Assembly: GCA_012514915.1 (NCBI GenBank)
Contig: JAAYZJ010000318.1
Coordinates: 1-35,905 of the forward strand
Origin: Lentisphaerota bacterium
Lineage (GTDB): Bacteria; Verrucomicrobiota; Kiritimatiellia; RFP12; JAAYLN01
Length of the DNA: 35,905 nucleotides
Direction of reading: 5' to 3'
Made by a program: the position numbers and the translations under genes. Below are positions 10,954 to 35,663 of the stretch, piece after piece. The notes beneath the pieces are model-generated. The model worked only from the letters and a program-made list of their open reading frames with translations, searched no databases and was not told the DNA's origin. Numbering within the stretch: the first letter of the stretch is position 1; the number at the start of each line of letters is the position of its first letter.

Positions 10954-11005
10954 AGGGGTTGGCTGCGGCCGGACGCGAGGCGTCCGGGGGTTCCCGTGCC
11001 GCGGT

Positions 11006-17145: not shown

Positions 17146-17161
17146 GCGTGGCTCCGTTCTG

Positions 17162-17998
17162 TCAGTCATGGTTCAGGCGCTGGCACGCAGGACAGATGTG
17201 CGTGCCGCGCTGGGCGACAACCAGCCGCGCGAGCGTGGTTCCGCAGCGGGGACACGGCTCGCCGTCGCGGCGGAAGACATTGAGGCGGTCGGCGTGGCGG
17301 CCGCGCCGCCCCGCCACACTGTAGAAATTGGACTGGCCGCTCCCCAGCGTCGTGCCGCGGTCGCGCACGGCGCGGGCGAGGATTTGGCGGATGGCTCCGT
17401 GCAGCGCCCGCGCCTCGTCGGCCGTCAGGCTGCTCGCGGGCCGCCCGGGATGCACGCCGGCCTGCCACAGCGACTCGTCGACGTAGATATTGCCCAGCCC
17501 GGCCACCAGCCGCTGGTCGAGCAACAGCGGCTTGATCGCCCGCCCGCGCCGCGACAGCTCCCGGGCGAAGTCCGGCAGCTTGAACGCCGGACCGAGGGGT
17601 TCCGGGCCGAGATCCGCCAGCGGATCCGACGCCGGCGTGCCGAGCGCGAAGCGACCGAACTTGCGGGTGTCGTTAAACACGAGCAGACGCCCGTCGTCCA
17701 GCGCCAGACGCACATGATCGTGCGGCCCGCGAGGCTCGTCGCCCGCCGCGAAGCGGAGTTTGCCGGTCATGCGCAGGTGGAGGAGGACGCGCCGGCCGCC
17801 GTCGAGATCGAGGACGATGTACTTGCCCCGGCGTCCAACCGCGAGAATCGTTGCGCCGGTCAGCACGCGCCGCACCGCGACGGGATCGGGGCCGAAGGTG
17901 CGCGGCCAGCGCAGCTCGACCGCGACGATCCTGGCCCCGCACAGCCCGCCGGCGCGCAGGCCGCGGACGACGGTCTCGACTTCGGGCAGTTCAGGCAT
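17162..17998 (-). CDS. mutM: Formamidopyrimidine-DNA glycosylase
   Basis: 278 aa. The N-terminal MPELPEVE catalytic motif, the H2TH region and the C-terminal zinc finger CPRCGTTLARLVVAQRGTHICPACQ are present. Confidence 0.92.
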   Translation of the reverse strand: MPELPEVETVVRGLRAGGLCGARIVAVELRWPRTFGPDPVAVRRVLTGATILAVGRRGKYIVLDLDGGRRVLLHLRMTGKLRFAAGDEPRGPHDHVRLALDDGRLLVFNDTRKFGRFALGTPASDPLADLGPEPLGPAFKLPDFARELSRRGRAIKPLLLDQRLVAGLGNIYVDESLWQAGVHPGRPASSLTADEARALHGAIRQILARAVRDRGTTLGSGQSNFYSVAGRRGRHADRLNVFRRDGEPCPRCGTTLARLVVAQRGTHICPACQRLNHD

Positions 17999-19467: not shown

Positions 19468-21789
19468 ATGACCTTTCGCACACTGGCCCTGAGCCTGGCC
19501 TGCATGTTGACGGCCGCCGCGGCGACGGCGAGCGTCGAACTGGCCGCCGGGGGCGCGAGCCGCTGCACCATCCTCGCGCCGGCGCGCCTGTTCATCGCCG
19601 ACCAGAAGACGCCCCCCGGCGCGGTCGGCGCCGCCGAGTTGGAGGCCAACCGCCGCCGCCTGCGGGCGTCCGTCCTCGATCTGGCCCACTATCTCGGCAC
19701 GCTCTCGGGGGCCTCGATCACCGTGGCGACCAACGCGTCCGATGTGCAGGGCGTCGCCGTGCGGATCGGTGAGGAGGCCGCCGCCGTGTTCGGCCCGGTC
19801 GGCCTCTCGGTCATGGGCGGACAGGGCTACCGGGTGGTCGTCGACAAGCGCGGCGTCGGGTTGTTCGGCGAGGCGGATCTGGGCACCAGCTATGCGATCT
19901 ACGATCTGCTGCACCGGCTCGGCTGCCGCTGGTACATGCCGGGCGAACTGGGCGAGGTCATCCCCGCCGTCTCGGACATCCGGCTCGACGAGCAGGATCG
20001 CACCGGGCGCCCACACACCCTCTACCGCGGCGTCTGGTATGCCGACGAGGCGTTCAAGCGGCGCAACCGGACGGGCGGCGTGCAGCTCAGCGCCGGTCAC
20101 GCGCTCGAGGGCTACATCGGCCAGGATGTGCGCGAGCAGCATCCCGACTGGCGGGCGGTCAGCGGCGGCAAGCCGGCCCACCGCCGCCTGAAATGGAGCA
20201 AGCCCGGCGTGGCCGAGGCGCTGGCCGACGGCATCATCGCGCGCCTCGACAAGACGGTCGGCACCCAGTCGATCTCGCTCTCGCCCGACGACGGCATGGG
20301 GTACGACGAGACCGACGACAAGACTCTCGATGCCGGCGACTGGGATTCGAGCATCGGGCAGGTCTCCATCACCGACCGCCAGGTCTGGCTGTGTAACCGC
20401 ATCATCGAGCGGGTCAACGCGAAGCACCCCGGCATCAAGTACGGCATGCTCGCCTACGGCGCCAGCACCCGCCCGCCGGTCCGCGAAAAGCCGCACGCGC
20501 AGCTCGTGCCGCAGATCGCGCCGATCACCTTCCGCCGCGCCCACCCGATGACCGACGACCGCGTCCCCGACAACAAAGAGCTGCGCGCGCTGATCGAGGG
20601 CTGGGCGAAGCTCAGCCCCGAACTCTCCTACTACTACTACGGCTGGTTTCTCGCCGAACCCTCGGCGCCCAACCCCTTCCTGACCAAATGGGCTGTCGAC
20701 GTCCCGATCGCGATGCGCAACAACTGCGCCTACTGGCAGCCCGAGACGCTGGCGAACTTCGAAACGACGATGCACGCCCTCTACATGAGCCTGCGCCTCG
20801 CCTGGGATCCGGCGGAAGACCCCTGGGCCGTCTACGACGAGATCAACACGCGCTTCTACGGACGGGCCGCCCCGCAGATGAAGGCGTACTGGGAACTCGT
20901 CGACAAGACCTGGCTCGACGTCCCCGAGTATTCCGGCTGCGGGTTCGGCCACATGCGCCGCTTCCCGCCCGAGGCGCTGGCGGCCTGGCGCGCCGCGATG
21001 GACGCGGCGCTGGCCGCCTGCACCTCCATCACCGAGTACCGCCGCGTCAAGCTGGCCGACACCTCGCTGCGCCTCTTCGATCTGTTCATGCAGCTCCGTC
21101 GCGATCTGGCCGACGGCCGCTGGACGACACTCGACCGCGACGTCCGGAAGTACATCGGCTGGATGGACGCCGCGGGCGACGAGTACGCCGCCAACTACGC
21201 GTTCGCCCGCGCCCCCTGGGCCTGGCACAAGTCGGTGAACCTCACCTATTTCCGCTCGTTCTACCAGGCGACCTACGACGACGCGGCGCGCCTGGCCGAC
21301 AAGAAGAAGTTCGCGATCCTGCTGCCGCGCCCACTCCGCGAATTCCGCTACCAGGCCGATCCCGACAAGCAGGGCGAGGCGGCCGGCTGGCAGGCGGCCG
21401 CGTTCGACGATGCCGCCTGGAGCACGACCGACGTCTGTCTGCAGACGTGGTCGTCGCTCGACCTGCATGCCTACATGGGCAGCGTCTGGTACCGCACCCG
21501 GGTCAAGCTTGGCACCCTGCCCACCGGCAAGCGGATCAAGCTCTGGATCGGCGCGACCGACGGCAGCGCCAAGGTGTTCGTCAACGGGCGCCACGTCCCC
21601 TACACGACCGGCGTCGACGAGACGCTCGATGTCGCCAACGGCTACTGTAAGCCTTTCCTGTTCGATGTGACCGATGCCGTGGCGGCGAATGCCGAGAACA
21701 CGCTGGCCATCCTGGCCACACGGACTTTTATCAACGAGTTGGGCACCGGGGGCCTGATGGCGCCCGTCACCCTTGTCGCCGAGCAATAG
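19468..21789 (+). CDS. Exported DUF4838-like protein with a C-terminal galactose-binding-like domain (putative glycoside hydrolase)
   Basis: 773 aa. Signal peptide MTFRTLALSLACMLTAAAATASV. The long central region is of the kind annotated DUF4838 in Bacteroidota and PVC genomes. The C-terminal YMGSVWYRTRVKL .. KLWIGATDGSAKVFVNGRHV matches the GH2-type sugar-binding jelly-roll pattern. SD GGGAGACGG lies upstream. Confidence 0.65.
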   Translation: MTFRTLALSLACMLTAAAATASVELAAGGASRCTILAPARLFIADQKTPPGAVGAAELEANRRRLRASVLDLAHYLGTLSGASITVATNASDVQGVAVRIGEEAAAVFGPVGLSVMGGQGYRVVVDKRGVGLFGEADLGTSYAIYDLLHRLGCRWYMPGELGEVIPAVSDIRLDEQDRTGRPHTLYRGVWYADEAFKRRNRTGGVQLSAGHALEGYIGQDVREQHPDWRAVSGGKPAHRRLKWSKPGVAEALADGIIARLDKTVGTQSISLSPDDGMGYDETDDKTLDAGDWDSSIGQVSITDRQVWLCNRIIERVNAKHPGIKYGMLAYGASTRPPVREKPHAQLVPQIAPITFRRAHPMTDDRVPDNKELRALIEGWAKLSPELSYYYYGWFLAEPSAPNPFLTKWAVDVPIAMRNNCAYWQPETLANFETTMHALYMSLRLAWDPAEDPWAVYDEINTRFYGRAAPQMKAYWELVDKTWLDVPEYSGCGFGHMRRFPPEALAAWRAAMDAALAACTSITEYRRVKLADTSLRLFDLFMQLRRDLADGRWTTLDRDVRKYIGWMDAAGDEYAANYAFARAPWAWHKSVNLTYFRSFYQATYDDAARLADKKKFAILLPRPLREFRYQADPDKQGEAAGWQAAAFDDAAWSTTDVCLQTWSSLDLHAYMGSVWYRTRVKLGTLPTGKRIKLWIGATDGSAKVFVNGRHVPYTTGVDETLDVANGYCKPFLFDVTDAVAANAENTLAILATRTFINELGTGGLMAPVTLVAEQ

Positions 21790-21821: not shown

Positions 21822-22115
21822 ATGCCGACCTACGAGTATGAGTGCCGCCACTGCGGCCATGCCTTCGAACAATTTCAGAGCATCAAGGCGCCGCCCCTGA
21901 CCACGTGTCCCGTATGCGGTAAAAAGAAGGTCAAGCGCCTGCTGGGCGCCGGCGCCGGCCTGTTGTTCAAGGGTTCGGGTTTCTACCAGACGGACTACCG
22001 GAGCGCCTCCTATCAGTCCCGGGCCAGCGCCGAGAAGACGTCCAAGCCGGAGGCCGCCAAGGCCACGAGCACCACGTCCACGAGCACCACGGCCAAGCCG
22101 ACCGGCCAGGCTTGA
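21822..22115 (+). CDS. FmdB-family zinc-ribbon protein
   Basis: 97 aa. MPTYEYECRHCGHAFE .. CPVCG (the CxxC-x-CxxC FmdB/CxxC_CxxC_SSSS signature), GSGFYQTDY, then a low-complexity S/T/A/K tail. Confidence 0.8.
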   Translation: MPTYEYECRHCGHAFEQFQSIKAPPLTTCPVCGKKKVKRLLGAGAGLLFKGSGFYQTDYRSASYQSRASAEKTSKPEAAKATSTTSTSTTAKPTGQA

Positions 22116-22152: not shown

Positions 22153-23307
22153 ATGCGGCGGGTACCCATCAGATTGCGCGCAGGCGGAGGCCGGCAGCCG
22201 TTGCGGCGGCTGGCCGTCGGCCTGCTGCTACTGTCGGAACCGCTCGCCGCAGCCGACGATTTCATCGTCCGAACCACGCCGGAGTGGCGGGTGCATGAAT
22301 TCGCCGTCCTCCGCCTGGCACGCGCCGTGCACCGCGAACTCGTCGAGACGCTCGGGCTCCCCTCCCCCATGAGCCATGGCCCGGTCGAAATCGAACTGGG
22401 ACTGGGCGAGCCGCCGCCGGACGGCGCCGGGCACGCCGTCGTACGCGGCCCCAGCGGCGTGTTCGGGCTGGTCCGCCTGGGCGACCCGCGGGTGCTTGAC
22501 CGCGACGAGACGGCTTTCGCCCTGGCGGCCGCCCTGGTGCGCGCGGCGATCCACAACCGGGCCCGCGGCCCGGAGGCTGTGACCGAACCGCCCGTCTGGT
22601 TCATCCGGGGCGTGGCCCGGCAGGCCGACCCGAGCCTGCGCGGCGCCGACTTCGAGGCGGCCTACGCGCGCTGGTCGGGCGGGCGCCTTCCCGGCGCGGC
22701 CGAATTGTGGCAGGCCAGGCGCTCGCCCGCCGCCCAGCACCTCGACGTGGCCTCGCAGTTGGCGGCCTGGTGCGCCTCCCGTCCGGACCGCCAGCAGCGC
22801 TGGCAGGCCTGGTGCGAGCACCTGGCGCAGGGAGGCGCCTGGACCCCCGGGGCGCTGGCGTCCATCTGGTTCGACGACGACGACCTGGCCCGCCTCGACG
22901 CGGCCTGGGACGCGTGGCTCGTCGTCCGCACGCGCCGCGTGTTCGACCCCGGCACGACGCCGGCGGGCGTCAGGCGGCGTTTCCAGTCGCAATTATTGCT
23001 CTATCCCTGGGAATGTGTTATTTATATCCCTGCCGTGGCGCTGGGTGGAACCCCGCTGGTCTGGTGCATCGAAAACCCCGACAGTCCCGGGGTGCGGCAG
23101 GCCGCCGCCGCCAAGTCGCGGCACCTGCTGCTGCAGGGCGCCGGCCGCGACCCCGCCTTCAGGGAAATGGCGGCAGGCTACGCCGACGTGATGCGGCGGC
23201 TGGCGGCGGGCGCCTCCCGCCGCGAGCTGCGGTCGCGCTGGCGGCAGGCCGAGGCGCAGCGGCTGGCCCTCGAGGCCGAACGGACGGCGCCACCAAGGAA
23301 CGAATAA
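22153..23307 (+). CDS. Hypothetical exported protein, Trp/Arg/Ala-rich
   Basis: 384 aa. SD GGGAG at 22142-22146. N-terminal signal-like segment RRLAVGLLLLSEPLAAADD. No recognisable catalytic motif. Contains an AT-rich rare-codon patch at about 22985-23030. Confidence 0.5.
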   Translation: MRRVPIRLRAGGGRQPLRRLAVGLLLLSEPLAAADDFIVRTTPEWRVHEFAVLRLARAVHRELVETLGLPSPMSHGPVEIELGLGEPPPDGAGHAVVRGPSGVFGLVRLGDPRVLDRDETAFALAAALVRAAIHNRARGPEAVTEPPVWFIRGVARQADPSLRGADFEAAYARWSGGRLPGAAELWQARRSPAAQHLDVASQLAAWCASRPDRQQRWQAWCEHLAQGGAWTPGALASIWFDDDDLARLDAAWDAWLVVRTRRVFDPGTTPAGVRRRFQSQLLLYPWECVIYIPAVALGGTPLVWCIENPDSPGVRQAAAAKSRHLLLQGAGRDPAFREMAAGYADVMRRLAAGASRRELRSRWRQAEAQRLALEAERTAPPRNE

Positions 23308-23313
23308 CCGGGC

Positions 23314-24735
23314 ATGAGTGCAAGCGATAACAAGCGGAAGACCCTGGTAGGGGCGATCCACCCCGATGTGCTGGCCTTCACGGTCGGGCGCGATCCCGAG
23401 CTCGATCTGCACCTGCTCGACTGGGACTGCCTCGGCAGCGCCGCGCACGTCACCATGCTCAGCCGCATGCGCATCCAGCCAACCCTCTTCACGGCCGTCG
23501 AGCGCGCGGCCGTCGTCGCCGAGCTCGCCGCCATCATGCGGGCGGGCCGGGCCGGCGCCTTCGCCATCTCCCAGGAGGATCAGGACGTCCATCTGGCCGT
23601 CGAACGCCGCCTGACCGAGAAGCTGGGCGACCTCGGCAAACGCATCCACACCGGCCGCAGCCGCAACGACCAGGTGGCCGTCGACCTGCGCCTGCATGCC
23701 CGTGACAACCTGCTGGGCGTGTGCGACGAGTGCGTCGCCCTCGCGCGCGCGCTGCTCGCGTTCGCGCGCCGCCACCGCGACGTTCCCATGGTCGGCCGCA
23801 CGCACCTCCAGCCCGCCATGCCCAGCTCGGTCGGCCTGTGGGCCTCGGGCTACGCCGAAGGGCTGCTCGACGACCTGCTGACGGTCGAGGCCGCCTACGC
23901 CTACGCCGACCGCTGCCCCCTCGGCTCGGCGGCCGGCTACGGCGTGCCGCTGCCCATCGACCGCCGGCTGACGGCCGACCTGCTCGGTTTCGCGGCGCCG
24001 ATCCACAATGTCTTCCACGCCAGCAACACCCGCGGCAAGTGCGAGTCGATCGTGCTCGGCGCCCTGGCGCAGATCATGCTCACCTCGTCGCGGCTCGCCG
24101 AGGATTTGATTCTCTTCACGATGCCCGAGTTCGGCTACTTCGCCCTGCCTCCCGAGTTGTGCACCGGCAGCAGCATCATGCCCCAGAAGTACAATCCCGA
24201 TGTGCTCGAACTGATCCGCGCCAAGACGGCGCGCGTCCTCGGGCACCAGACGGCGGTCGGCGCCATCCTCAAGGCGATGCCCGGTGGCTACAACCGCGAT
24301 CTGCAGGAAACCAAGGAGCTCTACCTGGATGGCGTCGCCGTCACGCGCGCCACCCTGCGGATCCTCCACCTGATGACGCAGGGGCTGACGGTCCGTCCCG
24401 ACCGCCTGCGCGCCGGTTTCGGTCCCGGCGTGTTCGCGACCGACCGCGCCCTCGAGCTGGTGGCGTCCGGCGTCCCCTTCCGCGAGGCCTACAGTCGCGT
24501 GCGGGGCAGCCTCGACACCCTGGCCGGCGCCGACCCCGATGCCGCCATCGCCGCCAAACGCCACCTGGGCGGCACGGCCGGGCTCGATCTCGACGGGCTG
24601 GCCGCGCGCGCCGAGGCCATCCGCCGGGAGACGCGGCGCCGGCGCCGGATCGCCCACGCCGCTTTTTCCCGGCTGCTGCACGTCGACTTCCAAACGCTCA
24701 CGCCCCGCGCGGGCCCACGTCAACAGGGAGCCTAA
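23314..24735 (+). CDS. argH: Argininosuccinate lyase
   Basis: 473 aa. Fumarate-lyase superfamily signature GSSIMPQKYNPD, plus TGRSRNDQV and HLQPAMP. Collinear with ArgH. Confidence 0.95.
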   Translation: MSASDNKRKTLVGAIHPDVLAFTVGRDPELDLHLLDWDCLGSAAHVTMLSRMRIQPTLFTAVERAAVVAELAAIMRAGRAGAFAISQEDQDVHLAVERRLTEKLGDLGKRIHTGRSRNDQVAVDLRLHARDNLLGVCDECVALARALLAFARRHRDVPMVGRTHLQPAMPSSVGLWASGYAEGLLDDLLTVEAAYAYADRCPLGSAAGYGVPLPIDRRLTADLLGFAAPIHNVFHASNTRGKCESIVLGALAQIMLTSSRLAEDLILFTMPEFGYFALPPELCTGSSIMPQKYNPDVLELIRAKTARVLGHQTAVGAILKAMPGGYNRDLQETKELYLDGVAVTRATLRILHLMTQGLTVRPDRLRAGFGPGVFATDRALELVASGVPFREAYSRVRGSLDTLAGADPDAAIAAKRHLGGTAGLDLDGLAARAEAIRRETRRRRRIAHAAFSRLLHVDFQTLTPRAGPRQQGA

Positions 24736-24740
24736 CCACC

Positions 24741-25619
24741 ATGCTCAAGCCACGATTCCTCCTCGCCGCCGCCGCCGTCCTGATCCTGACGACGGGGGGC
24801 CCGGCCCCACTGCGCGCGCAAACGGCGGCGCCCCCCGCCGCGGCGGAGACGGGAACCCCCGCCCTCGCCGCACCGCCGGCGCCGCTCCCCGTGCCACTTC
24901 CCCGCGCCGAGGCGCCCGTCATCGAGCGCGCCGAGGCGCCAGCACCGCGCGGCCCGGCGGGCGAGACCGCCACGCGCACGTTTGGCATGTCGTGGCGCGA
25001 GGCCTGGCACTACGGCGGCACAATCATGTGGTTCATCCTCGCGCTATCGATCATCGGCGGGGCCCTCAGCATCTACCTGTTCATCATCCTGCGGCCGGCC
25101 CAGATCGCCCCGCGGGCGCTGCGCAGCGAGTTGCGCGACCGGCTCCGCGACAACGATCTGAACGCGGCACGCCGCGCCTGCGAGAGCCGGGCCTGCCCCC
25201 TCTCCGCCGTCACCCTCGCGGCGCTGGACTACATCCGCGGCATCCCCGAGCCCGATGTCCCCCTGCTGAGGGACGTCGTCGAATCCGAGGGGAGCCGCCA
25301 GGCCGAGGATCTGCAGTCGCAGACGCAGTTCCTGCTCGACCTGTCGGTCATCACGCCGATGCTCGGGCTGCTCGGCACCGTGCTCGGCATGCTCAAAGCC
25401 TTCGGCTCGATCGCGCAGGACTACACGGCCGCCAAGCCCGTCATCCTGGCGCAGGGCGTCTCCCAGGCGATCATCACGACCATCTTCGGCCTGGCCATCG
25501 CCATCCCCTGCATGCTCCTGTACGCCTATTTCCGGCGGCGCGCGGTCCGCATGATCGCCCTTCTTGAAACGGCCGCCGCCGACGTGCTGGCGACCCTGGC
25601 CGGGAGGCGTTCCCCATGA
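24741..25619 (+). CDS. MotA/TolQ/ExbB-family proton channel, with signal peptide and a Pro/Ala-rich N-terminal extension
   Basis: Start at ATG 24741 (SD GGGAG at 24726-24730), 5 nt after the argH stop. Three TM helices. The motif ITPMLGLLGTVLGML and the AQGVSQAIITTIFGLAIAIP helix are hallmark ExbB/TolQ features. Residues 1-85 are a signal peptide plus an A/P-rich stretch. Confidence 0.85.
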   Translation: MLKPRFLLAAAAVLILTTGGPAPLRAQTAAPPAAAETGTPALAAPPAPLPVPLPRAEAPVIERAEAPAPRGPAGETATRTFGMSWREAWHYGGTIMWFILALSIIGGALSIYLFIILRPAQIAPRALRSELRDRLRDNDLNAARRACESRACPLSAVTLAALDYIRGIPEPDVPLLRDVVESEGSRQAEDLQSQTQFLLDLSVITPMLGLLGTVLGMLKAFGSIAQDYTAAKPVILAQGVSQAIITTIFGLAIAIPCMLLYAYFRRRAVRMIALLETAAADVLATLAGRRSP

Positions 25620-26071
25620 GATTCCAGTCCCGCGGCGGCGCGCGCCTCCCCGAGGTCCAGTTCACCTCGATGATCGACATCGTCTTCCTGCTGCTGTGCT
25701 TCTTCATCACGACGTCGGTGTTCTCGCAGTGGGAATACGAAGTCGATGTGGTGCTGCCCACGGCCCAGTCGGGCAAGATGCCCGACCGGCTGCCCGGCGA
25801 GGTGATCATCAATCTGACGCGCGACGGCCGCACGATCATCAACCAGCAGGTGCTCGACGCCGTCCAGCTCAAGGATCGCCTGACACGCCTCGCCCGCTTT
25901 TTCCCGGGGCAGCCCATCGTGCTGCGCGCCGACCGGCTCACCGCCTATGAGAACGTCGTCGGCGTGATCGACCTCTGCCGCCAGGCCGACATCTGGAACA
26001 TCTCCTTTGCCACCAGCGGCGACGAGGATGGCGGCGGTCAAGCGGCCACAACGGGAGGCGCGGCCAGGTGA
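25616..26071 (+). CDS. ExbD/TolR-family biopolymer transport protein
   Basis: 151 aa. ATGA overlap with the exbB-like gene. A single TM carries the conserved Asp (SMIDIVFLLLCFF; Asp codon at 25676-25678). The periplasmic domain has the pattern VIINLTRDG .. PIVLRADR .. Y..VV.VID. Confidence 0.85.
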   Translation: MRFQSRGGARLPEVQFTSMIDIVFLLLCFFITTSVFSQWEYEVDVVLPTAQSGKMPDRLPGEVIINLTRDGRTIINQQVLDAVQLKDRLTRLARFFPGQPIVLRADRLTAYENVVGVIDLCRQADIWNISFATSGDEDGGGQAATTGGAAR

Positions 26072-28488
26072 CATTGGCCCTCCCAAGCCCTGCTGCGGCG
26101 CGGCGGCGCGGGCGTCTCGCAGTCGCCGTTCTGGCCTGCGGATGCGCGGCGGCGTTCGCGGCGGCGCGCGCCGCCGACGATGCGATCGCGCCGGGCGACC
26201 GCAAGCAACTGGCCGACGGGCTCTTCAGCCGCGGCCTGTACGCGCTGGCGCTGCCGGAATACCAGGCGCTGGCAGGAATCCGGCCGCCCGTGCCGCCGCT
26301 CGACGAGATCCTCTTCCGCCTCGGGGAGTGCCAGCGGCGGCTCGAGCAGCCCGCCGAGGCGGAGAGCAGCTACCGGCGACTGGCGGCGGAATGCCCGGCC
26401 AGCCCCTTGCGCGACCGCGCCGTCCTCATGCGCGGCCTGATCGTTCTGGAGATGGGTCGCCCCGCGATCGCCGCCGAACTGCTGGAATCGCTGCTGTCCA
26501 CCAACGCCGCGCCCGATGTGGCGGGCGCCGCGCGCTACCACGCCGGGCAGGCCCGCGAGCAGGCGGGGGATCTCGCCCGCGCGCAGGAGCACTATCAGGC
26601 TCTGCGTGTGCAGGCGCCCGCCCATGAACTCGCCGTCTACGCGGGCCTGCGGCTGGCCGCCCTCCGTGCGCGGGAGCAGACGCCCGCCGCGACGGCCGCC
26701 GCCCTCGCCATCTACCAGCAGATTGCCGACCAGCCTCCCGACGCCCGCGCGGGCGCCGAGGCGCTGTTCCAGGCGGCCACGCTCGCCGACCAGTCGGGCG
26801 ACGGCGAGACTGCCGCCCGCCTGTACCGCCGGCTCGCCGAGCGCTACCCCCTCGACAGCCGCACCGCCGAGGCGGCCCGTCCGGCCGCGTGGGCCCATCT
26901 GCGCACCGGCCGCACGGCCGATGCGCTCGCCTACGCCACCCGTGCCCTGGCCGAGGCCTCCACCCTCACGCCCGCCGAGCGCGCCGAATGGCACTACCTC
27001 CAGGCCAACAGCCAGCGGCTGCTCGAGCAGCGGGACGAGGCCGTGGCGAGCTACGACGCCCTCCTCCTGGTTGACCCCCGCTCGTCCTTCGCGCCGGCCG
27101 CCCGCTTCGAGCGGCTGGTGGCGCTGTTCAAGAGCGGCGCCTACGAGCGGGTGCTCAAGGACGCCGACGCCTTCACCGATCCCCCGCCCAACCAGCGGCC
27201 CGACCTGCTCTGGATGCAGGCCAACGCCGCCGAGGCGCTCAAGGATGCCGCGCGCGCCGTGCAGTTCTACCGGATGCTGGCCGAGCAGGCCCCGCAAAGC
27301 CCCCTGGCGGCCGACGCCACCTACCGCCTCGCCTACCAGCTCCAGCAGCAGCAAGCCTGGGCCGAGGCCTCGCGCCGCTATCTCGAACTCGCCGACCGCT
27401 GGCCGACGAACGCGCTTGCACCCCGTGCCCTGTTCGCTTCGGGACTCTGCCTGGCGCAGGCGGGACAACCCGACGGCGCCCTGCGCGACTGGCGCCGCCT
27501 CCTGACCACCTTTCCCACGCACGAGACGGTTCCCGACGCGCTGTTTCAAAAGGGGCTGGAGGAAATCCGCCTGGGCCAGGACCGCGAGGCCGGCACCACG
27601 CTTGACGGGCTGCTGCGCGAACACGACGGCTACGCGCGGCTCGACGAGGCGCGCTTCTGGCGAGCTCACCTCGCCTACGCCGCCCGCGAGTTCGCGCTCG
27701 CCGAGCAGTTCCTCCGCGCCGCCCTGGCCGGCCACCCTCCCGTCGCGGTGCGGCGCGAGGCCGAATTCCTCCTGGGCCTCGTCCTGCAGGCGACCGGGCG
27801 CGACGCCGAAGCGGCCGCCTGTTTCCAACCCCTGCTCCACGCGCCGATCATCGAGAAATTCACGATCGACCGCCTCAGTTGGCTGGCCGAATTTCAATAC
27901 GCGCGCCAGGCGCTGGCCGAGTCGGAGGCGGCGGCGCGGGCCATGCAGGCGCACGCCCCGTCCGACGACTGGCGACAGGCCGCCGCGGCATTGCTCGGCC
28001 GCGCCCTTCAGGGGGCCGGGAAACGGGACGAGGCGATCACCGCCTACCAGCAGGCCCTGGCGACTCCCGCCCGCACCCGCTACGGCGCCGAGGCGGCGCT
28101 GCGTCTGGGCGAGCTCCTGCTCGAGACCGGCCGCGCGGCCGAGGCCGAAGGCCGCCTGCGGGATGCCGCCGAACGAGCCGCGGTTCCCGAACTGCAGGAC
28201 ATCCGCGCGCTGGCCTACGCGGCCTTGGGACAGGCTGCCGAGCGGCGCGGCGACCGCGAGACCGCCATCCGCTACCACATGAGCGTCGCCCTCCTCTTCG
28301 ACGATGCCGACCGGGTGCCCGCCGCCCTCGACCGCGCCGCCACGCTGCTGGCCGAACTCGGCCGCGGGGAAGAGAGCCGGGCCGCCGCGGATGAACTGCT
28401 GACCCGCTACCCCGACGCGCCGCAGGCGGCCCGCTGGCGCGCCGACGCGGCGGCACCGGCCACCCCCCCGGCCGGGGAGGGGCCCTGA
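26068..28488 (+). CDS. Exported or lipoprotein-like tetratricopeptide-repeat protein (806 aa)
   Basis: GTG start overlaps the exbD stop (GTGA at 26068-26071). N-terminal signal sequence RRRGRLAVAVLACGCAAAFAAARA, with a possible lipobox (VLAC). The rest is wall-to-wall TPR-like helical repeats (..A.Y..G.....G....A...Y..L....P.S..A..A). The mirror ORF 26038-28494 is rejected. Confidence 0.75.
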   Translation: MTLALPSPAAARRRGRLAVAVLACGCAAAFAAARAADDAIAPGDRKQLADGLFSRGLYALALPEYQALAGIRPPVPPLDEILFRLGECQRRLEQPAEAESSYRRLAAECPASPLRDRAVLMRGLIVLEMGRPAIAAELLESLLSTNAAPDVAGAARYHAGQAREQAGDLARAQEHYQALRVQAPAHELAVYAGLRLAALRAREQTPAATAAALAIYQQIADQPPDARAGAEALFQAATLADQSGDGETAARLYRRLAERYPLDSRTAEAARPAAWAHLRTGRTADALAYATRALAEASTLTPAERAEWHYLQANSQRLLEQRDEAVASYDALLLVDPRSSFAPAARFERLVALFKSGAYERVLKDADAFTDPPPNQRPDLLWMQANAAEALKDAARAVQFYRMLAEQAPQSPLAADATYRLAYQLQQQQAWAEASRRYLELADRWPTNALAPRALFASGLCLAQAGQPDGALRDWRRLLTTFPTHETVPDALFQKGLEEIRLGQDREAGTTLDGLLREHDGYARLDEARFWRAHLAYAAREFALAEQFLRAALAGHPPVAVRREAEFLLGLVLQATGRDAEAAACFQPLLHAPIIEKFTIDRLSWLAEFQYARQALAESEAAARAMQAHAPSDDWRQAAAALLGRALQGAGKRDEAITAYQQALATPARTRYGAEAALRLGELLLETGRAAEAEGRLRDAAERAAVPELQDIRALAYAALGQAAERRGDRETAIRYHMSVALLFDDADRVPAALDRAATLLAELGRGEESRAAADELLTRYPDAPQAARWRADAAAPATPPAGEGP

Positions 28489-30254
28489 TGCCACCCTATG
28501 CTTCCTTCAGCCCCGACGGGCACGGCGAACGCAGCAACCACCATTCCCTGCTGCTGGCGCTGGCCATCACCGTCTCGTTCATCGCCCATCTGGTGCTGAT
28601 GATGACCATCTCGGACTGGACGTTCGAGCAGGTGCGCATCGTGGCGGCGGTGCCCGATCCGCCCCGCCCACCCCTGCGGGTCGAGCGGATGGAGCGGGAC
28701 CCGCAGCGCGCCCTGGGCAACCCCGAGACGGGGCGTCCCGAGGACGGCGCCGGGGTTGGGGTTCCGCGCGAACAGCTTCATGCGCTGGCCCGCCTGCCCG
28801 ACCCTGCCCTGGTCACGCCGCCCGCCCGCACCCCCGCTTCGCTCGCGGGCACCCTGGTGAACCTGCAGGCGCCGCCGCGGCAGCCCACTGCGCTGGGCTG
28901 GCAGCCCCGCCAGCAGATCGTGGCCATCGTCGACCGGACGGTGAAGGACGACCTGGCGACCCTGCCGCGCCGCGAAATCGCCCGCATCGAGCGGGTCGCG
29001 CGCGCCCCCGACTACGTCCCGGCGGTGGATGTCACCCGCGACCGTTTCGGCGGCGAGGCCGAAGTGCGCCCGCCACCCGCCGCGCAGACCGTCCGGACGG
29101 GCGGCGAAACGCCCGTCGCCGACCCGCCGGCACCCGCCGACGCCGCCATCCGCCTCGACGAGGGGGCCACCCCCGACGCCGCCATCCACCGCTTCGGCGA
29201 GCGGCCTGGCGACGTCAGCGACTACACGGCCATCGACTCGCGCCTGATGGCCCGGATCGAGACGTTTGCCCCCGACGGTCCGGAGGGGCGCCGCTACTTC
29301 CGGCTGAACATCGCCCGGCGAGACGGCGAGACGCTGCCGGTCGTGCCGAAGGACATCATCTTTCTGCAGGACAGCTCGCGCAGCCTCGCCGAGGAGCGCC
29401 TCTACTTCTGCCGGCAGGCGCTCAAGCGCCTGGTCCCGCGACTGAACCCCGGCGACCGCTTCAACATCGCCCGCTTCAGCGACGCGCCGACCTTCTGCTT
29501 CGAGACCTGGACCCCGGTCACGCCGGCGTCGGTCGCCGCCGCCGACGCGTTCATCGACACCATGCGCTCCGAGGGGGAAACCGACGTGTTCGCCTCGGTC
29601 CGCACGCTGCAAAGCCTGCCGCGCGATCCGGCACGGCCCCTGATCGCCGTCGTCATCACCGACGGCCGTGCCACCGCCGGCCTGACGGCAAGCACGGCGA
29701 TCATCGGCGAGTTCTCCAAAATGAACGCCGATGGGTGCTCGGTCTTCGCCCTCGGCACCCACGGCCGCGCGAACGCCTACCTGCTCGACCTGCTCACCTT
29801 CTGCAACCGGGGCGCCTCGACGATCGTCACCAGCGGCCGCTGGGACATCCCCCGCGAGATCGAGGCGCTGGTCGACGGTCTCGCGCGCCCGGTTCTGGGC
29901 AACGTGCGGGTGACGGCCGACCTGGCCTCGCAGGCCGACCTGCAGCCGCTGCCCGCCGCCAACCTGTATGCCGACCGGACGCTCGAGTTCTTCGGCACGA
30001 CCCCGCCCGGCGTGACGAACCTCGTCCTCCAGGTGCGCGGCGAGGGAGGCGCGACCGCCTGCGACGTGATCTTCCAACTCGACCTGGCGGCGGCGCCCGC
30101 GGGGGGCGAGGCGGTGCGGAAGGGATGGGCGCGGCGCAAAATGCACAGCCTGATCGGCGCCTACGCCCGCGAGCCCGGCGAGCCGCTGCTGCGGGAGATG
30201 CGGCAACTGAGCCGCCTGTACAACGTGCCGATCCCCTACCGGGACGAACTCTAA
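28488..30254 (+). CDS. Membrane-anchored von Willebrand factor A (VWA) domain protein with a TonB/TolA-like N-terminal anchor and Pro-rich spacer
   Basis: The ATG at 28488 shares one nt with the TPR gene's TGA (TGATG). The TM helix at residues 20-41 contains S30-x3-H34 (VSFIAHLVL). Residues 55-245 are Pro-rich and low-complexity. The VWA fold spans about 288-460 with a complete MIDAS site (D295-S-S297-R-S299, T365 in GETD, D392 in TDG). The C-terminal beta-rich region resembles VIT/VWA (YfbK-like) tails. Confidence 0.75.
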   Translation: MPPYASFSPDGHGERSNHHSLLLALAITVSFIAHLVLMMTISDWTFEQVRIVAAVPDPPRPPLRVERMERDPQRALGNPETGRPEDGAGVGVPREQLHALARLPDPALVTPPARTPASLAGTLVNLQAPPRQPTALGWQPRQQIVAIVDRTVKDDLATLPRREIARIERVARAPDYVPAVDVTRDRFGGEAEVRPPPAAQTVRTGGETPVADPPAPADAAIRLDEGATPDAAIHRFGERPGDVSDYTAIDSRLMARIETFAPDGPEGRRYFRLNIARRDGETLPVVPKDIIFLQDSSRSLAEERLYFCRQALKRLVPRLNPGDRFNIARFSDAPTFCFETWTPVTPASVAAADAFIDTMRSEGETDVFASVRTLQSLPRDPARPLIAVVITDGRATAGLTASTAIIGEFSKMNADGCSVFALGTHGRANAYLLDLLTFCNRGASTIVTSGRWDIPREIEALVDGLARPVLGNVRVTADLASQADLQPLPAANLYADRTLEFFGTTPPGVTNLVLQVRGEGGATACDVIFQLDLAAAPAGGEAVRKGWARRKMHSLIGAYAREPGEPLLREMRQLSRLYNVPIPYRDEL

Positions 30255-31429: not shown

Positions 31430-32443
31430 TCAGGCGGAAGTCCCAGGGGGCTTGATGCCCTCAGTGATCTCGACCAACTGCGGCTCGCGTCCCCACCAGT
31501 CGTCCAGGATGCGGCGGTAGTCGTCGGGATGCCGACTCGTGCGGATTTGGCGCCAGAGGAACGGGCCATCGACAAACCGCGCATGCAGGTAGCTCCAGAG
31601 CTCCTTGAGCCGGCCGAGGAGCGGGGCCGGGCCGGACAGCTCGTGCGCCGACTGATCGCCGAAGTCGTCGAGAAAGGCGCGCAGCCGCTCGATGGCGACG
31701 GGGCGGGGATCGCCGCGGATCCGGCCGGGCAGAAAGGGATCGGCGATGATCCCACGCCCGATCATCCAGCCCGACACGGCGGGAAAGCGGCGCCGCAGCT
31801 CGGCCAGATCGGCGGCGGTCCGGATGTCGCCATTGTAGCAGACCGGGTGTCGGCAGGCCTGCAGCGCTGCGGCAAAACCGTCGAGGTCGACATGCCCCTC
31901 GTAGCGCTGCCGCGCCGTCCGCGCGTGAATGGTCACCTCGCGCAACGGATAGCCATTCAGCAGGTCCATGCGTTCCAGCAGCAGGCCGGAGCTCTCGATC
32001 CCCAGCCGGACTTTAATCGAGAACCCACCGGGCATCAGCGCGCATCCCGTGTCCAGCATGCGCCGCAGCGCATCGGCATCGCGCAGCAGGCCGGCGCCGC
32101 GCCCCTTCTTGACGATCATCGGCCAGGGACAGCCGGCGTTGAGGTCGCAGCGGGCATAGCCCAGCCCCCGGATGGCCAGCAGCAGCGTCCGGAGTTCGGT
32201 GGACGACTTGCCGATGACCTGCGGCACCAGCGCCAGTGCCTGGTTGCGGGCCGGCTCGATGTCCGTCAAATGGGTTGCCTTGATGCGCACGCCGGCGACG
32301 GTGGTGAGAAACGGGGAGACGGCGCCGTCCAGATGTCCGAAATGGCGGGTAAGACATTGGCGGAAGGTGAGGCCGGTGACACCCCGCAGGGGTGCCAGCC
32401 ACAGGGTCTGCGGGCTCGGCGGCATGGAGACGGGCCTGGTCAC
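31430..32443 (-). CDS. dus: tRNA-dihydrouridine synthase
   Basis: 337 aa. LAPLRGVT, the NAGCP catalytic-Cys motif, HARTA..Y.G and MIGRG are Dus-family hallmarks. The GTG start at 32443 overlaps the ftsZ TGA (GTGA). An alternative ATG is at 32425. Confidence 0.85.
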   Translation of the reverse strand: MTRPVSMPPSPQTLWLAPLRGVTGLTFRQCLTRHFGHLDGAVSPFLTTVAGVRIKATHLTDIEPARNQALALVPQVIGKSSTELRTLLLAIRGLGYARCDLNAGCPWPMIVKKGRGAGLLRDADALRRMLDTGCALMPGGFSIKVRLGIESSGLLLERMDLLNGYPLREVTIHARTARQRYEGHVDLDGFAAALQACRHPVCYNGDIRTAADLAELRRRFPAVSGWMIGRGIIADPFLPGRIRGDPRPVAIERLRAFLDDFGDQSAHELSGPAPLLGRLKELWSYLHARFVDGPFLWRQIRTSRHPDDYRRILDDWWGREPQLVEITEGIKPPGTSA

Positions 32444-33606
32444 CGATCCAGCACGATCCCCAGGCGGAGATAGGTGGGGCGGTCGAGATCCTCGCCGTTG
32501 ATCAGCGTCGCCTCGACATCCTTGAAGCGTCCGCGTCCCTGCAGGCGGCCGCCGGTTCTGCCGCGCGGGCGGCGCGCGGCAGGCCGCAGATCGCCGGCGA
32601 GGCTTCCCCCCGCCGCGTCGAACGTCTCCTCCGCCGCCGGCTCCGGCAGGCGCGCCCCCGGCTGCCGCGGCCCGTCGAACAGCAGCGCGACGAGGTGGAT
32701 GGAGCCGGCATAACGCTCGTCAAGCACGGTTCCCATGCGCCATTCGCATCCCCGCGCCAAGGCGGCCTGCATGTGCTTGGAAATCTCCGACAGCTCGGCG
32801 AGGCGCAGGTCGCCGCCGGCCAGCACGCCCAGGGTGATGGCCTGCACCTCCTGCAACGGTGGCGCCTTCCCGAGCAGCGGACTGCGGCACAGCCGGGCGA
32901 CGGCCTCCGTGGCGCGCGCGGCGCCGGCGGCGGAGGCCACGGCCAGGCGGCACCGCCCCCTCCCCTGCGCCAGCACGGCCAGCAGCGACTCGGCATCCAG
33001 CGCAATGAACCCGGGCGTCGTGACCAGCCGCCAGAAGAGGGTGAGCGCCGCGCTGAAAACCGCTTCGGCCTGCGGCATGGCGTCCGCCAGCGTCTCGTGG
33101 GCGCCGGCGACGGCGTAAAGCTGATCCAGCGGGAGGACCACGAGGCCGTCGCTGGCCTCTTCGATCAGCGGCAGCGCCCGCTCCGCCTGCGTCAGGCGCT
33201 CGCGCCCCTCGAAGGCGAAGGGGAGGGTTGCCAGGCAGAGGGTATGGGCGCCGGCATTGCGCAGGGTGTTCAGAACCAGGGGGGTGGCGCCATTGCCGAC
33301 CCCGCCGCCGAGGGCCGTCACGACGACGGCCAGCCGCACGCCGGCCAGGGCCGCGGCGACCGCCTCGGCATCGTCCTGGGCCGCCGACCGTCCCTTGACC
33401 GGATCCCCGCCCGTTCCGTGCCCGTCGAACCGCTTGGCCCCGAGAATCATGCAGCGCATGTTGCCGATGCCGCGGGTGGCGACGGCGTCGCTGTCAAACC
33501 CGATGGCCGCCAGTTCGCCGTCGAAGGTCCGCACGGCCGCCGAAGCCAGGCGGCAGCCGCCGCCGCCGACCCCGACAAGCATCATCGAAACGATTGCGTC
33601 GTTCAT
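32440..33606 (-). CDS. ftsZ: Cell division protein FtsZ (divergent)
   Basis: Start at ATG 33606 (MNDAIVSMMLVGVGGGG..), overlapping the ftsA TGA (ATGA). The 212 upstream codons of ORF 32440-34242 lie inside ftsA and are rejected. Collinear with the FtsZ core and in the correct dcw position after ftsA. The C-terminal peptide EDLDRPTYLRLGI resembles the conserved FtsA-binding tail. The signature reads GGGVGNG instead of GGGTG[ST]G. Confidence 0.8.
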   Translation of the reverse strand: MNDAIVSMMLVGVGGGGCRLASAAVRTFDGELAAIGFDSDAVATRGIGNMRCMILGAKRFDGHGTGGDPVKGRSAAQDDAEAVAAALAGVRLAVVVTALGGGVGNGATPLVLNTLRNAGAHTLCLATLPFAFEGRERLTQAERALPLIEEASDGLVVLPLDQLYAVAGAHETLADAMPQAEAVFSAALTLFWRLVTTPGFIALDAESLLAVLAQGRGRCRLAVASAAGAARATEAVARLCRSPLLGKAPPLQEVQAITLGVLAGGDLRLAELSEISKHMQAALARGCEWRMGTVLDERYAGSIHLVALLFDGPRQPGARLPEPAAEETFDAAGGSLAGDLRPAARRPRGRTGGRLQGRGRFKDVEATLINGEDLDRPTYLRLGIVLDR

Positions 33607-34805
33607 CGCCTGAAAAACCCCTGGATAAATTCCTTGAAGGGACGGATGATCCCCGTTTCCTGATAAGTCTTGAAGCCGTAGAGGACCAGGCCGGCGACGG
33701 TCGCGTAGGCGGCGGGATTCTCGACGGCATCGAGACCCGACACGTTGCAGGGCTCGCCGATCTGGCAGGGGACGCCGAAGATCGCACGCCCCAGTTCCGT
33801 CAGTCCGGGCATGGCCGCTCCCCCGCCGGTGAAGACCACGCCCGCGCCCAGCTTGGACAGCGCGCCGGCCTCCAGCAGGGCGCTCCGCACCAGGCGCAGG
33901 GTCTCCGCCAGGCGGGCGTTGATCACGACATGAAACGCCTTCAGGCTGATGCTGCGCTCCTGGAAACCCAGATCCTGCGGAATGGCCAGCCGCTTCAGTC
34001 CGGTCGCGGCGCCGACCAGCGCGTGGCCGTCCGACCGCTTGAGCTCCTCGGCGCGGGCCGTCGGCAGGTTGAAGGCCTGCGTAAGATCGTTGGTGACATG
34101 GTCGCCGCCCACTCCGAACGAGCCGGCGCAGGCGATCACGTTGTCGGCGTAGGCCAGGTAGCTGGTGGTGCCCCCGCCAAGGTCGATCACCACCACGCCC
34201 GCGCGCTTCTGCTCCGTCGTCAGCGTCGCCAGTGCGGCGCACAACCCGCTGAAGACGACATCATCGACATTGAGCTCGACCGACTGCACGACCTTGCGGA
34301 GGTTGTCGATGCGGTTGCGCAGGGCGTGGATCACCAGCATGTCGAGCGACAACTGCGCGCCATGCAGCCCCTCGGGCTTCATGATGCCCGTCTGGTCATC
34401 GAGCCCGAACGACTGGGTCACCGTGTGCATGATGTCGCGGTCGGACGGCAGGTTGACGGCCTGCGCGAGCTCGATGACCTCCTCGACATCCTCGTGCGAG
34501 ACGATCTGGTCGCGCGCGCGCACGGGAACCGATCCCCGGTTGACCTTCGACTCGATGTGCCCCCCGCTCGCGGCCAGCAGCAGCCGGCCGACATCGACCT
34601 CGCTCTCCTCGGAGGCCTGCTGCACGGCGCGCACGACACCGACCTTGGCAAGTTCGACATCGATGATTTGCCCCTTGCGGACGCCGGTTGTCTTGTACAC
34701 GCCGCGTCCGGTGATCGTCACGCGGCGCGCGTCGTCCATTTCGCCGACCAGCGCGATCGTCTGGGTCGTGCCGATTTCCAAAGCTGCAATGGGAGGTATG
34801 GCCAT
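33603..34805 (-). CDS. ftsA: Cell division protein FtsA
   Basis: 400 aa. Actin-like ATPase motifs (ALEIGTT, VVVIDLGGGTT, GGDHVTNDL, VFTGGGA). C-terminal amphipathic helix FKEFIQGFFRR. Confidence 0.9.
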   Translation of the reverse strand: MAIPPIAALEIGTTQTIALVGEMDDARRVTITGRGVYKTTGVRKGQIIDVELAKVGVVRAVQQASEESEVDVGRLLLAASGGHIESKVNRGSVPVRARDQIVSHEDVEEVIELAQAVNLPSDRDIMHTVTQSFGLDDQTGIMKPEGLHGAQLSLDMLVIHALRNRIDNLRKVVQSVELNVDDVVFSGLCAALATLTTEQKRAGVVVIDLGGGTTSYLAYADNVIACAGSFGVGGDHVTNDLTQAFNLPTARAEELKRSDGHALVGAATGLKRLAIPQDLGFQERSISLKAFHVVINARLAETLRLVRSALLEAGALSKLGAGVVFTGGGAAMPGLTELGRAIFGVPCQIGEPCNVSGLDAVENPAAYATVAGLVLYGFKTYQETGIIRPFKEFIQGFFRR

Positions 34806-34826
34806 AGCGTGTGCACGTCCTCTCGC

Positions 34827-35663
34827 TCAGCGCGCATAGGCGCGCCCTTGAATCGTTGCGTCCCAGCTTGCCCGGCCCTGGCCGCGCTCGGAGTTCATCG
34901 CGGTGGCGAGGCCCTTCAACTGGGCCAGCAGAAAGCGCTGGGAGCGCGCATCGTGCTCCCCGAGATGCTTCCAGGCGAGCTTGACCCGCCGCTGATCCGA
35001 CATCGTGCAGATCAGGTAATCCTCGCGAGAGACATCGACATCGACGATCGGCAGCGGCAGCGGGTTGTTCTTCAGCACCTCGAAGAGTTCCAGGGCGGCC
35101 AGCGCCAGCCCGTCGACCCGCGCCCCCGGCACGACGAGTCCGTCGCGGTAGCCCGAGATGCAGGGGAGGGATTCCATGCCGAGGTACCGGACAAAAATCG
35201 TGCCGTCCGCGTCGACGGCAAACGGACGCCGCGCCAACCGCCCCAGCGGTTCCCGCTCGATCACGCGCACCGTAATCCGGTCGGGGAGCCGGCGGGTGAT
35301 GGACAGCGACCGGATCGTGGCGGCGTCGCGCAGGAAATCCTGCTGTCGCCGGCCGATGTCGACCTCGAACAGCGGCATCCCCTCCTGCAGCTTGAGGTAC
35401 TCGCAGACCAGCTCGCGCGTGATCGTGTCGCCGGCCTGCACGTCGATGTGCCGCAGCACGAACTGCCCACTGTGCATCAGGTAGTAGTTCACCCCGCCGA
35501 CGACGCCGGCGAGCAGGAACACGGCCAGGGCCGTGGCGGCCAGTCCAAGCATCAGCCGCCGCTGGGCGTTGCTCCAGACGGCCCGGCCGGCGCTGCGCAC
35601 CCGCAGGCGCCGCAGCAGACCACCCGGTCGCCGGTTCGGTTTTCGGCCAGCCGCCTTCGCCAT
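34827..35663 (-). CDS. ftsQ: Cell division protein FtsQ (POTRA domain)
   Basis: 278 aa. Basic N-terminus, single TM (LMLGLAATALAVFLLAGVVGGV), a POTRA-like segment (LRHIDVQAGDTITRELVCEYL), and a position between ddl and ftsA. Confidence 0.8.
   Translation of the reverse strand: MAKAAGRKPNRRPGGLLRRLRVRSAGRAVWSNAQRRLMLGLAATALAVFLLAGVVGGVNYYLMHSGQFVLRHIDVQAGDTITRELVCEYLKLQEGMPLFEVDIGRRQQDFLRDAATIRSLSITRRLPDRITVRVIEREPLGRLARRPFAVDADGTIFVRYLGMESLPCISGYRDGLVVPGARVDGLALAALELFEVLKNNPLPLPIVDVDVSREDYLICTMSDQRRVKLAWKHLGEHDARSQRFLLAQLKGLATAMNSERGQGRASWDATIQGRAYAR

Follow-up and report, generated by a model that had tools for sequence, protein, structure and literature searches.

A conserved ExbB-ExbD-TPR-VWA operon of Lentisphaerota and related bacteria: a candidate proton-driven envelope machine with a metal-binding arm

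The DNA analyzed here, called the window throughout, is a stretch of 35,905 nucleotides (nt) from a Lentisphaerota bacterium (contig JAAYZJ010000318.1 of assembly GCA_012514915.1) with a G+C content of about 70%. Our subject is a block of four genes, which encode an ExbB-type channel protein, an ExbD-type protein, an exported protein made of tetratricopeptide repeats (TPR) and a membrane-anchored protein with a von Willebrand factor type A (VWA) domain. A first-pass annotation, made from the letters alone, had proposed these four co-directional open reading frames (ORFs). Both the coordinates and the Pfam families (MotA_ExbB, ExbD, TPR and VWA) agree with it, and codon-position G+C sets the four ORFs apart from many spurious ones in the window. 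The genes are as follows.

24741-25619, + strand: exbB, 292 amino acids (aa); Pfam MotA_ExbB, E 5.8e-25
25616-26071, + strand: exbD, 151 aa; Pfam ExbD, E 1.1e-25
26068-28488, + strand: TPR protein, 806 aa, exported; several Pfam TPR families over residues ~80-740
28488-30254, + strand: VWA protein, 588 aa, anchored at its N-terminus; Pfam VWA_3 (E 1.5e-10) and VWA (E 9e-10) over residues 289-441

Each stop codon overlaps the next start, and all three junctions read as first described: ATGA between exbB and exbD (ccccATGAgatt, at 25616-25619), GTGA between exbD and the TPR gene (ccagGTGAcatt, at 26068-26071) and TGATG between the TPR and VWA genes (cccTGATGcc, at 28486-28490). A Shine-Dalgarno sequence of the GGGAGG type lies 8-10 nt before each downstream start, inside the preceding gene. 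The exbB gene itself starts 5 nt past the stop of an argH-like gene and has a GGGAG motif upstream of its start, while a scan for promoters and terminators gave nothing informative inside the cluster.

ExbB aligns to the structures of E. coli ExbB, Serratia ExbB and TolQ. By this alignment T213 (within GLLGTVLGM) and T247 correspond to T148 and T181 of E. coli ExbB, and both are invariant in the 20 ExbB sequences of the clusters compared. The transmembrane aspartate of ExbD, D21 (SMIDIVF; nt 25676-25678), aligns with that of ExbD in the Protein Data Bank (PDB) entries 7ajq and 6tyi and is invariant as well (19 cluster ExbDs), in agreement with the earlier statement that the stator residues are conserved. 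Residues 1-83 of ExbB (nt 24741-24990) comprise a signal-peptide-like segment and a Pro/Ala-rich extension of about 75 aa ahead of the first helix of the core; by phmmer the region aligns with the N-terminal extension of Serratia marcescens ExbB (7ajq, 6ye4), and it is poorly conserved among the cluster homologues. The motor genes miss all four NCBIfam equivalog cut-offs (exbB 56.2 against 206 bits, ExbD_1 31.1 against 153, tolQ 62.8 against 221 and tolR 49.1 against 127).

The VWA protein is the most informative of the four. The AlphaFold2 model divides it into a helix (residues 17-42), a disordered stretch (44-224) and a globular head (245-588), with the following parts.

28536-28613, + strand: N-terminal membrane helix, residues 17-42, with S30 at 28575-28577 and H34 at 28587-28589
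28617-29219, + strand: periplasmic linker of ~200 residues (44-244), Pro-rich and predicted disordered (predicted local distance difference test score, pLDDT, below 50 over most of 44-224)
28899-29021, + strand: conserved linker island, residues 138-178, W-Q-P-R-Q-x-I ... L-P-R-R-x-I-P-x-I-E-R-V-x-x-A-P-D
29220-30251, + strand: periplasmic head, residues 245-588, consisting of beta-hairpin, VWA domain, beta-sandwich and helical hairpin (pLDDT ~85-95)

A search of 5.8 billion proteins gave about 113 full-length relatives of some 590 aa, the few named ones coming from Verrucomicrobiota and Lentisphaerae metagenome-assembled genomes (MAGs). A profile search of 1.84 billion representatives raised this to at least 150 clusters at 50% identity, full length and each with E<1e-130. 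The members are all MAGs, and no cultured carrier was identified from the names of cluster members. For detailed comparison we aligned 18 VWA members (29-71% identical to the window protein), and for a wider view 139-140 family representatives.

S30 and H34 are the two invariant residues of an otherwise variable membrane helix in the 18 sequences; in the wide alignment the histidine is conserved in 140/140 and the SxxxH motif in 138/139 representatives. In TonB (S16, H20) and TolA (S18, H22), residues of the same spacing mark the face that docks on the motor. Since basic residues precede the helix, its topology is predicted to be N-in. The N-terminal 90 residues gave no match to TonB or TolA sequences in the PDB at E up to 10, and the likeness to these proteins therefore rests on motif, topology and gene context, not on alignable homology. 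With these features the VWA protein is a candidate force transducer of TonB/TolA topology. The first-pass annotation called it merely anchored, which is correct but understated, given an invariant Ser-x3-His as in TonB and TolA.

The linker is variable and gap-rich in the alignment, except for the island at residues 138-178, which is almost gap-free and has a mean top-residue frequency of 0.40-0.55 (against 0.07-0.25 in the flanking linker); R141, R161 and D175 are conserved at 91%, 97% and 91%, respectively. Because this conserved segment sits in a predicted-disordered region, it might be a docking peptide, with the TPR protein or ExbD as candidate partner.

The head carries a complete metal-ion-dependent adhesion site (MIDAS): D295-S-S297-R-S299 at nt 29370-29384, completed by T365 and D392. 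D295, D366 and D392 are conserved in 140/140 sequences and S297, S299 and T365 in 138-139/140; counted over the 139 representatives, the DxSxS motif occurs in 137, with T365 at 99% and D392 at 100%. The top Foldseek match of the head is inter-alpha-inhibitor heavy chain 1 (6fpy, E 4.9e-22), profile searches of the PDB return ITIH4 (E 2e-30) and ITIH1 (E 6.5e-28), and the protein matches NCBIfam TIGR03788 with E 3.4e-24. BatB (3ibs) is also among the structural matches. No TonB_C or TolA domain was detected on the VWA protein in Pfam (E up to 0.1), NCBIfam (TolA), Foldseek or PDB profile searches. Judged by sequence and model, the head is thus an ITIH-type VWA domain with no TonB_C or TolA fold, and its intact MIDAS agrees with the earlier description of a MIDAS-containing domain.

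The third gene encodes TPR throughout, with matches to TPR_6, TPR_16, TPR_2 and related Pfam families, and the repeats belong to the YbgF/CpoB and BamD types. The Tol system has CpoB as its TPR partner, which binds TolA's periplasm-spanning domain II. TIGR02795 (YbgF) matches the window protein with E 1.2e-45 and 154.9 bits (cut-off 90.1), a score that sums 8 stretches of the 806-aa protein for a model of 119 positions; by sequence, the match shows a repeat type in common rather than orthology with CpoB/YbgF. YbgF from the PDB (2xev) is matched with E 2.9e-5, and BatC weakly. The protein and its homologues have Sec-type signal peptides, and it is a candidate periplasmic scaffold. Two further ideas were rejected. 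A conserved acidic C-terminal tail as ligand of the MIDAS fails on the variability of the tails. An outer-membrane lipoprotein is suggested by a possible lipobox (V-L-A-C) in the window protein, but in most homologues the Sec signal is a plain one that lacks the cysteine; such a lipoprotein state has been inferred for the ancestral CpoB (PMC12204202). As a separate observation, the spacer between exbD and the TPR gene in one Lentisphaerales MAG (locus L015, ~3880-4260) holds a tandem repeat that encodes GSRFTVHG peptides in the frame of the TPR gene.

To place the block in a wider context, 185,579 species genomes were scanned with an alignment of seven VWA sequences, and the loci obtained were searched by tblastn with the window proteins. 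Full-length VWA relatives were seen only in lineages of the Planctomycetes-Verrucomicrobia-Chlamydiae (PVC) group, namely Lentisphaerales/Lentisphaerae, Kiritimatiellae/Kiritimatiellia, Victivallales and Verrucomicrobiota; one MAG with a relative is labelled Akkermansia sp. Every one of the 19 distinct loci with a sufficiently long upstream flank has ExbB-ExbD-TPR-VWA in this sequence, so the order reported for the window is kept across several PVC lineages. Where any upstream sequence was usable, the TPR gene directly precedes the VWA gene (22 of 27 loci). Between exbB and the TPR gene, the window and all 19 loci have one ExbD gene only, and overlaps of 4 nt or 1 nt recur at most junctions. 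An argH gene lies upstream of exbB in 16/19 full-order loci (it is absent in L003, L029 and L030), in many cases with a Zn-ribbon gene and a secreted 384-aa gene further upstream. The recurrence of this four-gene arrangement is far beyond chance.

As a control we took 53 bacterial and archaeal loci from other phyla, in which similarity is confined to the head. Relatives of ExbB, ExbD or the TPR protein occur within 7 kb in 0/53, and therefore motor linkage belongs to the SxxxH-bearing family; the idea that it is a general property of ITIH-like VWA genes was dropped.

The first-pass annotation knew of no characterized ExbBD/TolQR system with this output and treated the block as unprecedented. 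It remains true that none has been characterized experimentally, but systems of this kind have already been proposed in silico by Williams-Jones et al. (Mol Biol Evol 2025; PMC12204202, section 8 and SI1), whose operon type the window largely matches, and the claim of novelty is withdrawn to that extent. These authors describe inner-membrane-tethered vWA 'force transducers' with a helix of the SHLS type, a disordered linker containing a motor box and a vWA domain at the C-terminus. The transducer genes adjoin tolQ/tolR-like genes, an uncharacterized TPR gene co-occurs in PVC bacteria, and members are reported from Proteobacteria, Planctomycetes, Verrucomicrobia, Bacteroidetes and Rhodothermaeota. 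In their AlphaFold3 models the conserved helix histidine occupies the site of TonB/TolA on the motor (PMC12204202).

The window system resembles these systems in its N-terminal helix with SHLS-type serine and histidine (S30/H34), in the disordered, Pro-rich linker (pLDDT below 50 over 44-224) followed by a vWA domain where TonB_C or domain III of TolA would stand, and, among PVC bacteria, in the synteny with a TPR gene and with motor genes of the tolQ/tolR kind (19/19 loci). Also the distance from the basic residues to Ser-x3-His, some 12 residues, is shared by the window family and the published exemplar from Tichowtungia aerotolerans (K19, S31, H35). Nonetheless, the differences are considerable. 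The exemplar comprises two paralogous transducers of 474-476 aa and two heterologous TolR-like genes (PMC12204202), against one ExbD and one transducer in the window. BLASTP between the exemplar and the window VWA protein yields E 0.001 over 81 residues, and hhalign a probability of 43% covering just the start of the VWA fold. The MIDAS is intact (DxSxS, T, D) in the window family, whereas the Tichowtungia proteins read ILDANK at this place, and the ITIH-like head with its extra beta-sandwich and helical hairpin is unlike that of the exemplar. Judging from these comparisons, the kind of operon had been proposed in 2025, in silico, and the window family is a distinct version that can barely be aligned to the exemplar. 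The window family is also the cleaner version of the two, having a single motor, a single ExbD and a single transducer together with an intact MIDAS and the conserved island.

Taken together, we consider it reasonably probable that the four genes form one envelope machine driven by the proton-motive force and built on the Ton/Tol plan, in which the motor works through the S30/H34 helix on an arm with a MIDAS head, assisted by a TPR scaffold. ExbB and ExbD would constitute the proton motor in the inner membrane. The VWA protein would be the force transducer, its N-in helix docked with the Ser30-x3-His34 face against the outside of the ExbB ring and its disordered, Pro-rich linker of about 200 residues spanning the periplasm. 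By way of the metal ion in its MIDAS, the ITIH-type head at the far end might seize an acidic residue on a partner that sits at the outer membrane or close by. The TPR protein, translationally coupled and exported, would serve as periplasmic scaffold; by analogy with CpoB on TolA domain II, it probably docks on the linker island (138-178). Coupling of helix and motor, energy transfer to the VWA head, the head's ligand and the biological output are what we infer from the features listed above. As for the output, we favour housekeeping outer-membrane tethering or maintenance of the Tol type over nutrient import or gliding, on account of a partner of the CpoB type, a housekeeping synteny that is deep and conserved, and the lack of receptor, motility or defence genes.

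If such a machine operates, the same motor and docking motif would, in a conserved single-copy system, drive a metal-dependent VWA head, which would amount to a different coupling chemistry. To our knowledge TonB and TolA, which have the same C-terminal fold, are the only established monomeric arms that carry the energy of inner-membrane protons to the outer membrane. The system moreover occurs in PVC phyla, which are of environmental and medical relevance and where TonB and TolA are often difficult to detect. With a family of hundreds of members, clear targets for mutation present themselves in D21 of ExbD, H34 of the transducer and D295/S297/S299 of the MIDAS.

Several observations weigh against the proposed machine or its Tol-like output. 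The position of Glu176 in E. coli ExbB is taken by Q242 (nt 25464-25466) in the window and by glutamine in 14/20 cluster ExbBs (glutamate in 3, aspartate in 1). The candidate motor/stator box following the transducer helix (PPLRVE, residues 61-66) is weakly conserved, with P62 at 45% and L/V65 at 78%. An assignment of the motor to either the Tol or the Ton lineage was tried and given up, as the scores conflict: NCBIfam favours TolR over ExbD (49.1 against 31.1 bits), whereas the family ExbD profile places ExbD structures above TolR in the PDB (48 against 30 bits). Furthermore, in 5/27 loci the VWA gene is an orphan, located away from motor and TPR genes. Three of these five orphans lie directly downstream of a DUF1015 gene (L021 1678-2895, L027 5703-7037, L028 1498-2718), in MAGs from Victivallales, Lentisphaerae and Kiritimatiellia; all orphan members keep SxxxH and the MIDAS, and the DUF1015 context is a second conserved one, possibly that of a paralogous lineage. 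Their retention of both motifs counts in favour of the machine, for in E. coli, too, tonB is unlinked from exbBD. With respect to the output, the window contains no TolB or Pal gene, and Victivallales MAGs carry the cluster though TolA is reported in Victivallis vadensis (PMC12204202). Finally, the function of the published vWA transducers is stated to be unknown and no deletion phenotypes are reported (PMC12204202); the class is a prediction only.

A bolder form of the Tol-like reading, which we hold to be unlikely, makes the VWA protein the 'missing TolA' in the Kiritimatiellota and Lentisphaerota and in part of the Verrucomicrobiota. Its MIDAS would then take hold of an acidic residue, N-terminal or in a loop, on TolB, on Pal or on a different outer-membrane partner, and the giant CpoB-like TPR protein, docked on the island, would link the machine to growth of the wall or to division. 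Such a stand-in for TolA is suggested because tolB-pal occurs without recognizable TolA in Kiritimatiella and in a Lentisphaerae MAG, the latter listed as 'tolQ-tolR-???- No TolA found' with tolB-pal elsewhere (PMC12204202, supplement). If true, the C-terminal domain of TolA/TonB would have been swapped for a non-homologous, metal-dependent VWA grip, adding a third mechanistic solution for energy transfer from inner to outer membrane beside beta-augmentation at the TonB box and at the TolB box.

The motor might alternatively energize import in the manner of Ton, with the VWA protein replacing TonB and its MIDAS head pulling on outer-membrane transporters or gated pores (for glycans or metals). 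The higher rank of ExbD structures with the family profile, the Serratia-like extension of ExbB and the orphan transducer genes, which recall the unlinked tonB, are all in line with this, as is the existence of PVC species without recognizable TonB or TolA, such as Tichowtungia (PMC12204202). Nonetheless, we regard import as quite unlikely: TonB-dependent receptor genes are missing from the window and from the distant loci L001 and L003 (Pfam-listed called genes), the flanks are of a housekeeping type (argH) instead of nutrient-regulated, a large CpoB-like partner is a Tol rather than a Ton feature, and a VWA head has no known way to bind a TonB box by beta-augmentation. A machine for surface adhesion or gliding, in which the motor would move or expose a VWA adhesin through TPR scaffolds, was suggested as a function in PMC12204202. 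Motor, TPR and VWA indeed make up the parts list of Agl-Glt/CglB in Myxococcus, and VWA heads of the MIDAS type are classical adhesion modules. Set against this, the VWA protein is anchored in the inner membrane and has a linker just long enough to reach the outer membrane, the cluster encodes no outer-membrane or secretion components, and four genes forming a compact unit, with housekeeping surroundings conserved in many lineages, do not resemble a large accessory motility locus, which renders this option very improbable.

It might also be argued that no mechanical coupling exists at all: ExbB and ExbD would serve a canonical TonB or TolA encoded elsewhere, and the TPR and VWA proteins would be Bat-like envelope proteins that merely share the operon. 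Pairs of VWA and TPR proteins are indeed found in Bat operons, the structural match to BatB (3ibs) and the weak one of the TPR protein to BatC fit as well, and in five loci no motor genes adjoin the VWA gene. An invariant Ser-x3-His in a variable helix is, however, difficult to account for unless a conserved partner is present within the membrane. All three junctions have kept their translational coupling, the SxxxH-bearing family shows the linkage and its head-only relatives do not, and MoxR and DUF58 genes are missing from the window, so we find this view highly doubtful. The coupled machine with a Tol-like envelope output remains the reading we prefer.

The genes surrounding the block are of the housekeeping type and add context. 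Upstream, the order in the window is Zn-ribbon gene, secreted 384-aa gene and argH, and division genes converge on the cluster from the other side.

21822-22115, + strand: Zn_ribbon_8 gene, upstream of the 384-aa gene
22153-23307, + strand: secreted 384-aa protein with signal-peptide-like N-terminus
23314-24735, + strand: argH-like lyase, directly upstream of exbB; Pfam Lyase_1, E 2.5e-49
32440-35663, - strand: dus and ftsZ-ftsA-ftsQ, converging on the cluster, ~2 kb downstream of the VWA gene

The argH gene is probably co-transcribed with the block, yet we do not think it a functional part of the system but a syntenic neighbour. The 384-aa protein has no Pfam or PADLOC match, and its AlphaFold2 model (of moderate confidence) found no significant fold match in the PDB. 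By tblastn it is matched at the same upstream position, before argH-exbB, in 11 PVC loci. As a missing outer partner it was not adopted, having 8 close homologues only, none with domains, and no fold match; it could be an unrecognized component of the system or a mere conserved neighbour. Downstream of the VWA gene lies a gene for an LpxL-like acyltransferase (lpxL). The genes ftsQ-ftsA-ftsZ and dus were not detected in those downstream flanks that are available for related loci.

As first stated, TonB_C, TolA, TolB_N, OmpA/Pal and TonB-dependent-receptor domains are missing from all screened window ORFs. The sole PD40 repeat of the window occurs in a 781-aa fusion with LPG_synthase_TM, a membrane domain of the lysylphosphatidylglycerol synthase type (8842-11187, - strand). 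This combination with a TolB-type beta-propeller is an unusual architecture in an envelope context. Elsewhere in the window, a 726-aa ORF (14989-17169, - strand) has a strong coding bias and no Pfam match, and a 773-aa DUF4838 protein, glycoside-hydrolase-like, is encoded at 19468-21789 (+ strand).

Comparison with known systems puts the block between several of them. The head, with its intact MIDAS, is homologous to those of ITIH1/ITIH4, PARP4 and bacterial sortase-target VIT-VWA proteins, but these proteins are secreted or sortase-anchored and lack the TonB-like N-terminal module. Zorya defence systems were set apart from the block already in the first-pass annotation, and the numbers agree: NCBIfam ZorA2 scores 11 against 700 bits, and the PADLOC defence search returned nothing for the cluster beyond a weak match to the ZorA core (E 0.0039), with none for the other three proteins. 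The distinction from Bat operons (MoxR, DUF58, the VWA proteins BatA/BatB and the TPR proteins BatC/BatE) likewise stands. Both combine a membrane-anchored VWA protein with TPR proteins, and the VWA core has BatB among its structural neighbours, whereas the screened window ORFs include no MoxR or DUF58 and a single VWA protein, accompanied by ExbB-ExbD and provided with a Ser-x3-His helix.

With the Ton system the block shares a motor family of the 5:2 type, an N-in helix with Ser-x3-His, a Pro-rich periplasmic spacer and a transducer gene that is sometimes unlinked from the motor genes. It differs in lacking TonB_C and, within the window, a TonB-dependent receptor, in having a large TPR partner, and in ExbB and ExbD sequences that stay below the equivalog cut-offs of NCBIfam. 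Tol-Pal is similar in gene order (motor, motor, then transducer), in a TPR partner made of YbgF/CpoB-type units and, for the window, in the proximity of the division genes ftsQAZ. Here the differences concern the VWA protein, which has no TolA domain III, the missing TolB and Pal in the window, a motor below the TolQ and TolR equivalog cut-offs and the size of the TPR protein (806 aa with about 8 CpoB-like units, against ~260 aa for CpoB). Finally, the Agl-Glt machinery of Myxococcus also unites a motor of the TolQR type with TPR proteins of the periplasm and a VWA module (CglB) in one functional system. There, CglB is an adhesin and a lipoprotein of the outer membrane, TonB_C is found on the transducers GltG/GltJ and at least 17 proteins take part, whereas the window system consists of four genes and its VWA protein would itself be the arm, anchored in the inner membrane.

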